Assembly (NCBI GenBank): GCA_048938855.1
Contig: JBHLLT010000009.1
Span: forward strand, 1-64,000
Length of the DNA stretch: 64,000 nt
From: Promethearchaeota archaeon
GTDB taxonomy: Archaea > Asgardarchaeota > Lokiarchaeia > Sigyniarchaeales > SOKP01
Direction: 5' to 3'
A program made the position numbers and the translations under genes. The notes beneath the pieces were generated by a model that saw only the letters and a list, made by a program, of their open reading frames with translations, did not search any database and was not told where the DNA came from. Shown one piece after another: positions 42,182 to 47,267 of the stretch. Position 1 is the stretch's first letter; each line of letters begins with the position of its first letter.

Positions 42182-44326
42182 ATGGCTACATTAATCATAA
42201 CAGAAAAAAAAAAAGCTGCAGAAGCAATTTCAAATGCGTTAGGTCCAGCCACGAAACTAAAAATTACTAATAGGTTGGAAACTTATTTCATTTCATCAAA
42301 AGACCTTTATGTTATACCTTTACGTGGTCATCTCCTTGAATATAGAAATACAGACGCATACAAGAGTTGGGCAACTCCACCTCCCAGAGAAATCATAACC
42401 AATGAGAAGGCAATTAAAAAATTTCAAATCAGAGGATCAGGACCATATGTTAAGGTAGTTAAGGATTATGCAAAAAAATGTGACCATGTTATTGTCTCAA
42501 CTGATGCGGATATTGAAGGATGCAATATTGGTTTATTTGATGCACTTCCTTTTGTAAAACAAGTAAACTCTAATATAAAAATATCACAATTATGGCTAAG
42601 TTCACTTCAGAAAAGTGAAATTATTAATAAGTTTAACAACCTTATAATACCAAAATATAGTTGGGGTGAATCAGGAGAAGCACGAGCAATTATAGATGCT
42701 TTCATTGGTTTTTCTGCCACTAGAGAAGTTACAAATACATTGCGTCCATTATTAAACAAATTTAGGGTTAGATTTACATCAATTGGGCGAGTTCAGACTA
42801 GCTTACTCTATTTAATATATCTCAGAGAAAAAGAAATTTTGGATTTTGTTCCAGAACCATACTTTTTAATTGATGCTGATTTAATTCATTCAAAAGGAGT
42901 ATTTAAAGCACACCATCATGAAAATCCCTTCAGCAAAGATCAAGGAACCAAAGCAAAACAAATATATGATAAAATAAAAGATGAAAAAATAGGAAATATT
43001 ATAGATAATTCTAAGAAAGTGACTAAAAGATCTCCACCATCCCCATTGAATACTTCAAAAGCTTTAGTACTTTTAACAAAGAATTTAAAGATTTCTGCTA
43101 ACCGGGCTATGCAAACAATGAACGCCTTATACTTAAATCAAATAATTTCTTACCCTCGAACAGACAGTGATGTTTACAAATTAAATTTTAATCATAAAGA
43201 AATTATACAAAAATTTTCCTCGCATACTCTATTTAAAAGTTATAGTATAGAGTTATTAAAACAAAATAGGGTAATTCCAAGCAAAGGAAAAAAAGATATG
43301 GGAGATCATCCACCAATTACACCCCTTGAAAGTTTGAATACCAATAGTCCTAAATTAGAGAATGATTTACAAAAGAAAGTTTATGATCTACTTGCCCGTC
43401 ATTATCTTGCTCTTTTTGGAGAAGATGCTCTGGAATCTAAACAATCCTTAAAAATTTTGATTAAAGATGAACAATTTAATGCTCAGATTGTTTCTTTAAT
43501 TTCTCCTGGTTTCTTAGAAATTGCTCCTTTTCTCAAACCAAAATATGATACAGAAATCCAAATTGTTGGTGATAAAATACCGATAAAAGAGGTAATATTT
43601 AGTGAAAAAGAAACTACACCACCACCTAACTATACTGATACAACATTACTTAAATTAATGGAAAAAAACCATTTAGGCACGAAATCAACAAGACCAGTTA
43701 TAATAAAATTATTACAAACTCGTAAATTAACTGAACGAATTAGAGGTCATTATAAAATAACTGAATTAGGTATTTTTTTAATTGAAAATTTAATGAAGAT
43801 ATGGCTTCCTTTTTTAAAACCCGAATTTACCAAGAAAGTAGAAATTAAACTTGAAGAGATCAAAGAAAAAACACGACTTATGAAAGATGTTATAAATGAA
43901 ATAAGAAATGAGTTTTTACAACTATTTGATAAGTTTTTAGTAAATAAACATAAATTAGTCTCTACAATAGATAATTACAAAATCGAATACACGATTCCAC
44001 TTACTACTTCAAACTGCCCCTTTTGTAATTCACATCCAATGAAATTCATAAATGCAAAGACTAAAAGATTTTTAGTCTGTTCTGATGATAACTGTAAGCA
44101 GTTTCTATCATTACCTAAAAATGGAAAATTAGAATTACTAGATTCAACTTGCTCAATTTGTAGCTTTAATCTATTTAGAGTATCTCTAAAAAGAAATAAT
44201 AAACTTTATAATTATTATTTATGCCCTAAATGCTGGAATGAGGGTTTGAATGATAAGTCAGGAAAGGGATTTTGTTCAAATTGTGAAGAATTTAAAATTT
44301 TTAAGGGCAAATGTATAAGAAAATAA
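42182..44326 (+). CDS. topA: DNA topoisomerase type IA with C-terminal zinc ribbons
   Basis: LIITEK, TDADIEG, SIGRVQT, catalytic ISYPRTD, DHPPITP, LGTKSTR, multiple CxxC. Confidence 0.92.
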   Translation: MATLIITEKKKAAEAISNALGPATKLKITNRLETYFISSKDLYVIPLRGHLLEYRNTDAYKSWATPPPREIITNEKAIKKFQIRGSGPYVKVVKDYAKKCDHVIVSTDADIEGCNIGLFDALPFVKQVNSNIKISQLWLSSLQKSEIINKFNNLIIPKYSWGESGEARAIIDAFIGFSATREVTNTLRPLLNKFRVRFTSIGRVQTSLLYLIYLREKEILDFVPEPYFLIDADLIHSKGVFKAHHHENPFSKDQGTKAKQIYDKIKDEKIGNIIDNSKKVTKRSPPSPLNTSKALVLLTKNLKISANRAMQTMNALYLNQIISYPRTDSDVYKLNFNHKEIIQKFSSHTLFKSYSIELLKQNRVIPSKGKKDMGDHPPITPLESLNTNSPKLENDLQKKVYDLLARHYLALFGEDALESKQSLKILIKDEQFNAQIVSLISPGFLEIAPFLKPKYDTEIQIVGDKIPIKEVIFSEKETTPPPNYTDTTLLKLMEKNHLGTKSTRPVIIKLLQTRKLTERIRGHYKITELGIFLIENLMKIWLPFLKPEFTKKVEIKLEEIKEKTRLMKDVINEIRNEFLQLFDKFLVNKHKLVSTIDNYKIEYTIPLTTSNCPFCNSHPMKFINAKTKRFLVCSDDNCKQFLSLPKNGKLELLDSTCSICSFNLFRVSLKRNNKLYNYYLCPKCWNEGLNDKSGKGFCSNCEEFKIFKGKCIRK

Positions 44327-44335
44327 AATAGTCTT

Positions 44336-44674
44336 CTAAAAGTAATATTTTGAATCAAAACGGTATGCTGCTCTTGTTAATCCCACGTAATTATCATTTA
44401 GTTTATAAAGCATTTTTCCATTTACAATCTTTTTTTGTAGATAATTGTTTTTTATATAATGATTCAATGATGAAACCATGGTACCCAAAGTAACAGCCCC
44501 TATAAATTCATGTTGCTTTTTTGTAACTCTTATCAATTCTAACTCAGAATGCCACTGTCCATCTAGAAGTGCCATTAATATTTCATTTTTTATAGGAGTT
44601 GTGATATCTTTTATTTTATTAAATAAGTTAGAGTAGTTGGGTTTATAGAATGGATTTTCTTCAAAATCTTCCAT
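44336..44674 (-). CDS. Small winged-helix-like protein
   Basis: IKNEILMALLDGQWHSELEL...helix...YLQKKIVNGKMLYKL wing. Confidence 0.6.
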   Translation of the reverse strand: MEDFEENPFYKPNYSNLFNKIKDITTPIKNEILMALLDGQWHSELELIRVTKKQHEFIGAVTLGTMVSSLNHYIKNNYLQKKIVNGKMLYKLNDNYVGLTRAAYRFDSKYYF

Positions 44675-44792: not shown

Positions 44793-45914
44793 TTATAGTA
44801 AATTTGGTGGTATTCCTTCATTATAATATTTCGCACGTGTGATCCAATTTTGAGAAAATTCAGGGATCATTGCTAATATTGAACCACCAATCCAGACAGA
44901 AAAAGTTCGCTCCATTGGAGCAATAATCCGGACTCCAAGATTTTTCTTTTTCCTTCTAGCAAGTTCTAATTCTAACTCCTGATAAATACGAGCTTTTAAA
45001 TTCGGAAACATGGAGGAACCTCCTGAAAGAAAAATGTTGTTTAACAGTTCTGGACGAATGTCCAAATCACATGATTCAATTACATCCATGATTGCGACAT
45101 GTAATGAATCTTCTTCTAACTCAGAGGATGGTTTAAACAATAGTTCTGGAACAACAAATCGCTCTTTATTAAGTGAAATTGTAGAACCATCAGGTAAAGA
45201 ATATTCTTTTTCATATTGTTCACTGCGTTTTAAATCTTCATTATAATCTAATGAAACAAAGCATGCTTTTTCTTTTAAAACTCTAACCAATTCTCTGCGT
45301 ATTGAAGAATCAACAGACCATCCAATTGATTCCAACACTTGTTCCATATAACGAGTTAATACTCTTCCCCCTGTATCTAAGATCCTAACGGCATGCCCTA
45401 ATTTATATCCCTCATATAATGGAACTATTCTTGTATTACTATCCCCAATCTCTACAATTAGGCCAGTTTGGAAACCCCCAGAATATAATGTTAACATTGA
45501 ATCTAACACCGGATAAAAAGCCATACATTGATATCGTTCTAAAAATAATTCAAATATTTTTTCTAAATCTTTATGCGGAAATAACGGATGTACAGCAAAT
45601 AATACATTAACAAGTGTTGGATCCACTCTTAAATTATAAAAGATATAGTCAATTATATTTGCCAAATGAGTCCAATCTACTACAATTCCTTTCTCAATTG
45701 GATGGAAAATCTTATACAATCCGATTGATTGAATCTCATCTCCTACATAAGTCTCATCTTCACGAGACGCTTTACCACTATAATTAACACCAACATCTTG
45801 ATATTTAGGTTTACCAACCATTGTCAGGAATACTTGAGAGGGCGTATCTTCGCCTGCAAATCCAATTTTTGTTGAAAACTGCCCAATATCAAGAACAACT
45901 GTAAGATTTCCCAT
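44793..45914 (-). CDS. Actin-family protein (divergent Asgard actin / Arp-like)
   Basis: VVLDIG..STKIGFAGEDTP, HPIEKGIVVDW, TGLIVEIGD, VPLYEGY, KEKACFV, YSLPDG, ERF.VPELLFKP, LSGGSSMFP, SVWIGGSILA. Confidence 0.96.
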   Translation of the reverse strand: MGNLTVVLDIGQFSTKIGFAGEDTPSQVFLTMVGKPKYQDVGVNYSGKASREDETYVGDEIQSIGLYKIFHPIEKGIVVDWTHLANIIDYIFYNLRVDPTLVNVLFAVHPLFPHKDLEKIFELFLERYQCMAFYPVLDSMLTLYSGGFQTGLIVEIGDSNTRIVPLYEGYKLGHAVRILDTGGRVLTRYMEQVLESIGWSVDSSIRRELVRVLKEKACFVSLDYNEDLKRSEQYEKEYSLPDGSTISLNKERFVVPELLFKPSSELEEDSLHVAIMDVIESCDLDIRPELLNNIFLSGGSSMFPNLKARIYQELELELARRKKKNLGVRIIAPMERTFSVWIGGSILAMIPEFSQNWITRAKYYNEGIPPNLL

Positions 45915-46043: not shown

Positions 46044-46736
46044 TTATTCTCCTCTCATGATCTTCTTCAAACGATTTAACTCATCTAACATTTCATCTCG
46101 AAGAGAACTCAATCCTCCACCGGCTTTTGGAGCAACTCCGCCTGTTGCAGGTGCAGGAGCTGGTGCAGGAGGTCCGGGTCGTTTTGCAAATGCTGGCGCT
46201 GCTGGTGGTCCAGCACTTGGAGCTTTAGGGGGACCCGCGCCAGGAGGTGCACTGGGAAGCCCACCACTAGGTGGCAATTTTGGAGCCGGAGGTAAAGTAG
46301 GTTTTTTAGGTGGTCCACCACCACTTGGGGGCGCAGTAGGAGGCATTGCTTTTATCGGAGGCCCTGTACCAGGAGGTTTAGGAGCAGAAGGAGGCCCACC
46401 ACTTGGAGGTGCTGGGGCTGCGGGAATAGAAACAGTAGGCGCTGCAGTAGGAGTTGAAGTAGGTGTTCCACTACTTAATAAAGAGAATAAAGTACTAGCT
46501 GCGGCAGTCTTGGCAGTATCACTGCTTGGGGTGACTATTTTTTTAGAGGAAGTACTCACAGTTTGAACCTCTTCAACAACAGAGACTTCTTTCAAATCTT
46601 TTTGAGCTTTTGCCAATGATTTGATAAAATCATTTATTCCTTTTATTGTGTCCTCTAAATCATCAGATAGACTCGTGAGTCCTTTTTTCATAAAATTAAT
46701 TACGCGTTCAATCTTTTTCTGTTCTTTTGAAACCAC
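46044..46736 (-). CDS. Coiled-coil / proline-rich protein with C-terminal WH2-like motif
   Basis: N-terminal amphipathic helices, about 110-aa Pro/Ala/Gly tract with repeated PPSGG, C-terminal SSLRDEMLDELNRLKKI; GTG start after GAGG. Confidence 0.8.
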   Translation of the reverse strand: MVSKEQKKIERVINFMKKGLTSLSDDLEDTIKGINDFIKSLAKAQKDLKEVSVVEEVQTVSTSSKKIVTPSSDTAKTAAASTLFSLLSSGTPTSTPTAAPTVSIPAAPAPPSGGPPSAPKPPGTGPPIKAMPPTAPPSGGGPPKKPTLPPAPKLPPSGGLPSAPPGAGPPKAPSAGPPAAPAFAKRPGPPAPAPAPATGGVAPKAGGGLSSLRDEMLDELNRLKKIMRGE

Positions 46737-47000
46737 GTTCTTCTCAATTCCTCTAATGTTATTAAATAATTGATTAAAGTAAAAATTACTATTTATAATC
46801 TTTATATTTTTATTATATTAATATGTATTTATAATTTTATTCCATTCTTAATCAAGTCTATAAATCTAAATATTACGTAGATCTAGAAAAAACGTTAATT
46901 ATTAAAAAACCTAAACTAATAATATTATATAACATATTTCATTAGTAAGTTTAAAATTATTAATATTTCAATTTTAAGAAATTAAAAAGGTTTGTATAAA

Positions 47001-47267
47001 ATGCCTAAGCGTGAACTGTTCATTAAACGGGTTTATGAAATTGTTAATGAGCTTAAAATCCCCCTAATCGATGAAAGAGTTTATGACAGTGTTAAATTCA
47101 ATACAGGGGCAGCTGTTGCAGCTGTAATTTTCAGGTTTGAGGAAGATGAATCTGTAATCCGTGGATTTCTTGGTCTTGCTGAATATTTTCATACAGTTGT
47201 AATAAAGCGTAAGGATGAATTCTATATTCCCCACGCTTCCATTCTCTTCAGACTTATAAGTGCTTAG
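47001..47267 (+). CDS. Small hypothetical protein (start likely ATG 47001)
   Basis: 88-aa globular-looking ORF followed by T-rich terminator-like tract. Confidence 0.75.
   Translation: MPKRELFIKRVYEIVNELKIPLIDERVYDSVKFNTGAAVAAVIFRFEEDESVIRGFLGLAEYFHTVVIKRKDEFYIPHASILFRLISA

Follow-up and report, generated by a model that had tools for sequence, protein, structure and literature searches.

To our knowledge, Asgard archaea stand alone among prokaryotes in having an actin cytoskeleton that is regulated and eukaryote-like; of their actin regulators, only profilins and gelsolins have, as far as we know, been tested, and we know of no nucleator. Within a 64,000-nucleotide stretch of a Promethearchaeota archaeon genome (assembly GCA_048938855.1, contig JBHLLT010000009.1, positions 1 to 64,000; hereafter the window), a minus-strand gene encodes a second actin-family protein, here called X, in which residues central to ATP hydrolysis in actin are replaced (Table 1). 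Does X form the dynamic filament of the cell, a different kind of polymer, or a subunit that works with another actin? A preliminary description of the locus had taken it to be Arp-like rather than filament-forming.

X is a full-length member of the actin family

X matches the Pfam Actin family (PF00022) at 299 bits against a cut-off of 27, with residues 5–367 covered, and matches solved actins at an E-value of about 1e-85 (phmmer/HMMER). An AlphaFold2 model built from a 77-row alignment reached pLDDT 92 and pTM 0.89, and was used in place of the poor model (pLDDT 60) given by a shallow 28-row alignment; its only uncertain part is the D-loop, where residues 43–49 have pLDDT below 50. The top Foldseek matches are true actins (TM about 0.9, 39% identity). 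X has an actin-like length, and large Arp-type insertions are absent. Together, the full-length profile match and the four-subdomain fold confirm X as an actin family member.

Table 1. Features of the X locus and of related loci. Positions are those of the window unless a locus number (L) precedes them; substitutions use actin numbering.
Feature	Position	Strand	Remarks
Actin paralogue X gene	44793..45914	(-)	Intact 373-codon ORF, 373 aa
Phosphate-1 loop DIGQFSTK, residues 9-16	45867..45890	(-)	DNGSG to DIGQF (N12I, S14Q, G15F); D11, G13, K18 kept; alignment
D-loop region, residues 38-56	45747..45803	(-)	Extended relative to actin and Lokiactin; most variable segment within the family
Sensor loop PIEKG	45687..45701	(-)	K at the methylated-H73 position; alignment and family site table
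Pro-rich loop AVHPLFP	45576..45596	(-)	From TEAPLNP (A108H, N111F); alignment and family site table
Hinge helix VLDSMLTLY	45483..45509	(-)	Q137D; followed by groove lining SGGF (S145G, R147F); alignment
Phosphate-2 loop and catalytic position EIGDSNTRIVP	45420..45452	(-)	DSGDGV to EIGDSN (D154E, G158S, V159N); H161R; alignment
Subdomain 3 surface loop ARRKKKNLG	44934..44960	(-)	4-residue insertion at actin 322-325; loop in the model
C-terminus ending GIPPNLL	44796..44819	(-)	Terminal HRKCF of actin absent
Proline-rich 230-aa gene	46044..46736	(-)	Upstream of X, same strand; helical N-terminus, proline-rich middle, C-terminal helix
Invariant C-terminal helix of the 230-aa protein	46047-46115	(-)	Consensus LR[DE]EML.EL.RLKKIM
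112-aa gene	44336..44674	(-)	Downstream of X; syntenic in 78/80 related loci
Small GTPase genes upstream of X orthologue	L042:575-1165, L152:1790-2359	same as X	MK-D1-like and L. ossiferum
PIG-L deacetylase genes, examples	L116:9146-9892, L088:1024-1770, L041:2662-3408		Between the proline-rich gene and X

Lokiactin is encoded by a separate gene

The source assembly (3.95 Mb, 93 contigs) contains three actin-family genes. A canonical Lokiactin, with DNGTG, EHG and TEAPLNP motifs, Q137 and DIGDGVSHVVP, lies on another contig of the same genome (C79); X is 41% identical to it. Identity to a fungal actin is about 40% for X and 56% for Lokiactin. Typical Lokiactins share about 58% identity with eukaryotic actin and hardly differ between Asgard archaea. 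T/S14, G15, H73, Q137, G158 and H161 are invariant in 11 Lokiactins and all replaced in X. In matched genome pairs, the identity of X is 91, 75, 63, 58 and 51%, against 100, 99.7, 95.5, 88.5 and 90.8% for Lokiactin, so that X evolves several-fold faster. The separate canonical gene and the faster evolution of the X family uphold the preliminary claim that X is not the conserved Lokiactin: X is a paralogue, and the C79 gene fills the Lokiactin role. The third actin gene (L003:946-2466, contig C34) encodes a 506-aa paralogue with CxxC...CxxC zinc-ribbon-like insertions near the C-terminus, which is conserved across the order at 39–78% identity.

In a search of 301 Asgard genomes, X-type matches (48–95% identity) were found in almost every genome from the window's family and also in its sister family within the same order, and in none of the searched genomes outside the order, where the best match to X is the genome's own Lokiactin at about 45%. 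Among the genomes searched, X is therefore restricted to one order of Lokiarchaeia. Its reading frame is uninterrupted in nearly every one of about 130 species, two matches carrying a single stop, and the conservation pattern rejects both a pseudogene and chance as explanations of X. One 34-kb contig filed under ‘Candidatus Nanopelagicaceae bacterium’ (L130, DATKTW010000083.1) carries both an X orthologue at 78% identity and the proline-rich gene; it probably derives from an Asgard genome and was binned wrongly.

Trees were computed with IQ-TREE under LG+C20 from sets of 78 and 37 rows, with an approximately unbiased (AU) test on the 37 rows. The named eukaryotic Arps in the set are Arp1 of Candida and vertebrate Arp-T2-like proteins, without Arp2 and Arp3; the 150 best representatives are mostly unnamed or fused gene models, and the names looked up among them were Arp1, Arp-T2-like and a Hodarchaeota MAG protein. 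In both trees the X sequences are a clade of their own with a long stem (0.8–0.9), separate from the tight Lokiactin clade and from the one that holds eukaryotic actin, Arp1 and Arp-T2-like proteins. X falls near the base, where the branching order is poorly resolved, alongside the zinc-ribbon actins and metagenomic proteins without names; the zinc-ribbon actin and X group weakly in the 78-row tree (SH-aLRT 84), a grouping that the 37-row tree does not resolve. Branching inside the Lokiactin clade had been named beforehand as an outcome that would contradict an Arp-like reading. The maximum-likelihood trees place X outside that clade, but a tree constrained to group X with the order's Lokiactins is worse by 23.3 lnL units and is not rejected in the 37-row set (p-AU 0.15), so X may have originated by Lokiactin duplication. 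Since X is also confined to one order, it may equally well be a Lokiactin duplicate that is specific to the order and evolves fast, or an old paralogue that other lineages have lost.

The nucleotide is probably held while the hydrolysis device is replaced

Residue numbering was fixed by HMMER alignment with yeast and human actins, in which residue 9 of X corresponds to actin D11. The substitutions that the preliminary description had read by eye in the phosphate-1 loop, at H73, in TEAPLNP, at Q137, in the phosphate-2 loop and at H161 are all reproduced by this alignment (Table 1). They are invariant or nearly so in 17/17 aligned members of the window's family, and the same substituted states are kept in at least 120 sequence clusters among the matches listed, at 72–92% identity. 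Further changes seen in the family comparison are R177I with M176R, A138S and G308N. The 11 Lokiactins and three eukaryotic actins compared agree at 144 positions, of which X retains 71 and carries a different conserved residue at 39; these 39 are clustered in the nucleotide cleft and the barbed-end groove.

The retained and the replaced residues fall into two functional sets. D11, G13, K18, G156, R210, K213, E214, G301 and G302 are retained in all X members including the sister family, and most members keep M305 and Y306F; these residues make up the adenosine pocket and anchor the metal and the phosphates. All members differ from actin at S/T14 (Q or E), G15 (invariably F), H73 (K, G or N), A108 (H or N), N111 (F, L or M), Q137 (D or G), G158 (S or A), H161 (R) and R177 (I or F). 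Position 137 is D in 17/17 members of the window's family and G in 2/3 sister-family orthologues; D157 is retained by the window's family and replaced by Ala or Ser in 3/3 sister-family orthologues. We take N111 and R177 to be the gate of phosphate release, the back door. In actin, Q137 holds the attacking water and H161 activates it after a flip enforced by A108 (PMC3587832, PMC10062479). By the family site table, these water-positioning and water-activating residues are absent family-wide, in agreement with the claimed loss of canonical catalytic residues.

With hydrolysis and release residues replaced throughout the family and nucleotide-holding residues invariant, the whole hydrolysis and release device is gone, while the half of the site that holds the nucleotide is under selection. 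Furthermore, Gly137 in two sister-family orthologues and the loss of D157 in three make it unlikely that hydrolysis is the conserved function. The pattern points to a bound nucleotide without polymerisation-coupled hydrolysis of the kind found in actin.

Filament-contact surfaces are partly kept

The contact-residue lists were taken from PMC5314930. X retains YEGY 166–169, PDG 243–245 and D286/D288/R290 (DxDIR 286–290). Other contacts are changed: A204I and E205R are substituted, and the plug is one residue shorter and acidic. The subdomain 3 loop coincides with actin 322–325, a longitudinal filament contact (PMC5314930). A basic insertion, ARRKKKN, had been reported here; the basic stretch is real, but just four residues are inserted relative to actin and Lokiactin, the rest being substitutions, and the loop is basic in the window's family only, not in the sister family. 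Members of the window's family carry charge both in the acidic plug SELEED (X residues 264–270) and in the basic RRKKK of this loop, 2/3 sister-family orthologues carry it in neither, and the third (f2 g11) is partly charged in both. This covariation, a single evolutionary event, is only a hint of a charge pair.

The groove, too, is altered (A144S, S145G, R147F, T148Q, A170K, T351E, M355N), and its lining is invariant over both families. Because the groove is invariant while the D-loop varies, the comparison suggests a conserved ligand distinct from the D-loop.

A proline-rich protein is encoded next to X in one family

Upstream of X in the window lies the gene of a 230-aa proline-rich protein with no Pfam family and no Pfam WH2 match. 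Its conserved blocks are the N-terminal helix, AKTAAASTLF.LLSGG and LPPAPKLPP, and in the alignment its C-terminal helix shows no variation, sister-family members included. The LKKI tail motif is found upstream of X on the same strand, 126–2010 bp away, in at least 67 of 80 related named MAG loci; in most of the remaining loci the tail is present and the X start was missed by the pattern, or the upstream sequence is too short. In the sister family the proline-rich gene is present but 44–70 kb from X, so its linkage to X appears to be a trait of one family only. There, in the MK-D1-like and L. ossiferum genomes, X is directly preceded on the same strand by a gene for a small GTPase of 189–196 aa. 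Relatives often carry a 248-aa PIG-L/LmbE-type deacetylase gene (PF02585, E 2e-21) between the proline-rich gene and X, which is missing from this position in the window. In the window, a hairpin with a T-run lies between the proline-rich gene and X, so the two may be transcribed separately.

Read by eye, the tail MLDELNRLKKI has a helix-to-LKK gap about three residues shorter than that of LLxxIxxGxxLKKV, and its spacing differs in this respect from canonical WH2. A complex prediction of X with residues 186–230 of the neighbour, run without controls, gave a score of 0.00, which counts neither for nor against binding.

Downstream of X, the 112-aa protein has no Pfam match, and its nearest Atlas cluster is named HTH arsR-type, a lead only; it is possibly a winged-helix protein of the ArsR type. 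In one relative (L050) its gene is present in two tandem copies. Intergenic regions around the genes contain no centromere-like iterated repeats, repeats being found only in the proline-rich coding sequence. A gene for a 714-aa protein resembling type IA topoisomerases, with a zinc-finger region at its C-terminus (42182-44326, plus strand), is convergent with the 112-aa gene and syntenic in 72/80 loci. Divergent from the proline-rich gene, a 91-aa ORF (46992-47267, plus strand) without a family match is conserved in 45/80 related loci.

X has an orthologue in cultured L. ossiferum

Using the qPCR primer sequences published for UYP44126.1 of Ca. Lokiarchaeum ossiferum (PMC9834061), we found that the forward primer matches exactly 1 of the 154 genomes of the order, a 6.0-Mb sister-family genome, and that both primers fall inside one 373-aa ORF of that genome. 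The ORF shares 50% identity with X, 66% with the MK-D1-like orthologue and 34.5% with Lokiactin. By this comparison X is orthologous to UYP44126.1, and thereby an ‘Asgard ARP’ in the loose published sense of a non-Lokiactin homologue orthologous to an L. ossiferum protein. UYP44126.1 is one of three L. ossiferum ‘ARPs’ and is low-expressed, with transcripts several-fold below Lokiactin; it figures there as a tree leaf and qPCR target only, and the filaments imaged were identified as Lokiactin (Rodrigues-Oliveira et al. 2022, PMC9834061). The X family is thus already in a published tree, and the descriptive part of the present analysis is incremental. Our literature search found no biochemical or structural study of UYP44126.1, and, for what co-immunoprecipitation enriched along with Lokiactin, the text of PMC13716822 mentions no actin paralogue.

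UYP44126.1 resembles X in having F15 and R161 and in the loss of Q137 and H73. It differs in belonging to the sister family, in Gly at 137, in D157 replaced by Ser, in a 322–325 insertion that is not basic, and in the small GTPase gene that takes the place of the proline-rich gene upstream.

X as a candidate hydrolysis-uncoupled accessory subunit

X keeps the complete actin fold and, with its pocket and anchors intact, most likely holds nucleotide. Every element that couples polymerisation of actin to ATP hydrolysis and timed phosphate release is replaced: the water holders Q137/H161, the flip trigger A108, S14/G15/G158, the sensor H73 and the back-door N111/R177. X would thus be without the hydrolysis clock of actin, which would make it a structural or regulatory subunit of long lifetime, working alongside a Lokiactin that is dynamic and highly expressed. 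X might seed, cap or anchor Lokiactin filaments, or form a short stable polymer of its own, and in the window's family, judging from the conserved neighbourhood, the proline-rich adaptor would be its most plausible partner. We favour a nucleotide-holding, hydrolysis-uncoupled accessory subunit that works with Lokiactin, at a probability of roughly 0.5; more broadly, X is probably an accessory or stable-scaffold actin and not the main dynamic filament of the cell. Counting against this reading are the text of PMC13716822, with no actin paralogue mentioned for the Lokiactin co-immunoprecipitation, and the distance between X and the proline-rich gene in the sister family.

The main rival to this reading is that X self-assembles into a stable polymer, a second filament-former serving as a static scaffold of slow turnover, in which the loss of hydrolysis removes dynamic instability and not assembly. 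X has the length and fold of actin, with true actins as its best structural matches, and without large Arp-like insertions and with longitudinal motifs (YEGY, PDG, D286/D288/R290) kept, self- or co-assembly is possible. The invariant groove lining fits as well, and the charge covariation of plug and 322–325 loop would fit a salt bridge between subunits. The preliminary description had read lost hydrolysis as a sign of no polymerisation; however, a mutant at the Q137-equivalent position of ParM, a member of a distant actin-fold family, polymerises with wild-type kinetics without ATPase activity (PMC3587832), so loss of hydrolysis alone is no argument against filaments. Yet the D-loop, which must enter the groove of the neighbouring subunit, varies more than any other segment within the family, X lacks the C-terminal residues into which it would dock, and four residues are inserted within the 322–325 contact (PMC5314930). 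The low transcript level of the L. ossiferum orthologue relative to Lokiactin, the protein of the imaged filaments, likewise speaks against it (PMC9834061). On balance we hold a self-assembling scaffold to be a serious if doubtful alternative.

Against both readings it could be said that X is an active ATPase with another catalytic pair, Asp138 as general base and Arg162 as transition-state stabiliser, driving a dynamic polymer or a switch. Both residues are invariant in 17/17 members of the window's family, which also keep D11, K18, G156 and D157, and an acidic residue at the 137-equivalent position acts in other actin-fold ATPases (Glu148 of ParM, Glu175 of Hsp70). As such a residue is natural in ATP-hydrolysing ParM, Asp138 and Arg162 could support other chemistry, but Gly at 137 in the L. 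ossiferum and MK-D1-like orthologues, Ala or Ser for D157 in all three sister-family orthologues, and the replacement (by Q and F) of S14 and G15, which hold the beta- and gamma-phosphates through backbone and side chain, render an active ATPase improbable. Less likely still, X and the downstream winged-helix-like protein would be a ParM/ParR-like pair that moves DNA, or X a chromatin-associated, Arp4-like actin. An actin-like gene followed by that of a small putative DNA-binding protein is the order in 78/80 loci, the ArsR-type name of the nearest Atlas cluster would suit a ParR-like partner, and DIGQF of X resembles DIGSY of Arp4/BAF53, which we take to stay ATP-bound; for a ParM/ParR-like pair, however, the intergenic regions lack iterated centromere-like repeats, the small protein, without a Pfam match, could be a mere local regulator, and X is far nearer to actin (40%) than to ParM-type proteins. 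That X is a decaying or functionless duplicate of Lokiactin would accord with its fast evolution relative to Lokiactin, its lost catalytic residues and the AU result for an origin from the order's own Lokiactin. We regard this as scarcely credible, given a frame intact in almost all of about 130 species, 72–95% identity across the whole family with the replaced residues themselves invariant, and transcripts detected in L. ossiferum (PMC9834061).

A more specific form of the accessory-subunit reading is that X and its upstream LKKI-tailed neighbour are an archaeal nucleation-promoting pair, in which a WASP/VASP-like adaptor would recruit or activate X as a nucleotide-locked seed that starts or anchors Lokiactin filaments. 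Speculative as this is, and improbable in so precise a form, a rewired, conserved X beside a proline-rich adaptor is a concrete nucleator candidate that is cheap to test, with one orthologue in cultured L. ossiferum. If true, the pair would be, in function, either a precursor or an analogue of nucleation by Arps, with an origin earlier than eukaryotes or separate from them. If X is instead a static second polymer, this would show a division of labour between dynamic and hydrolysis-independent actins to have arisen in archaea.

Comparison with known actin systems

Lokiactin, encoded in the same genome, shares with X the fold, the length class and a D-loop longer than that of eukaryotic actin, and may be its ancestor (AU p 0.15). 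It differs in keeping all catalytic and sensor residues and in its identity across the order, 88–100% vs 51–91% for X.

Arp2 and Arp3 are, like X, divergent actin paralogues, and they work with the main filament, not as it. They belong to a seven-subunit complex, are activated by proline-rich, WH2-bearing factors and have larger insertions than X. The basic insertion of X, which lies at a longitudinal contact, invites the same comparison. Arp4/BAF53 has an aromatic residue after a DxGS-type phosphate-1 motif, as X does, and is reported to remain ATP-bound, to hydrolyse little and not to polymerise; the polymerisation-blocking insertions of Arp4 have no counterpart in X. In the trees X has no specific affinity to the eukaryotic Arps in the set, Arp1 and Arp-T2-like proteins, from which Arp2 and Arp3 were absent. 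Furthermore, Arp2 and Arp3 retain both Q137 and H161 and hydrolyse ATP (PMC3587832), whereas X has D and R, so the loss of these residues, which had been read as a mark of an Arp, is not an Arp signature. Of the proposal that X is Arp-like rather than filament-forming, what stands is a non-Lokiactin paralogue with replaced catalytic residues; the actin length and the kept contact motifs tell against the remainder, and X as non-polymerising, as a nucleator or capper, or as membrane-binding through its basic loop are hypotheses.

For the invariant tail of the neighbouring protein, the nearest precedent would be arcadin-2, which is encoded beside crenactin and whose C-terminal helix grips the actin groove (PMC5173319). 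Crenactin is distant from X, and arcadin-2 may serve, by analogy, as a model for how such a tail would engage an actin.
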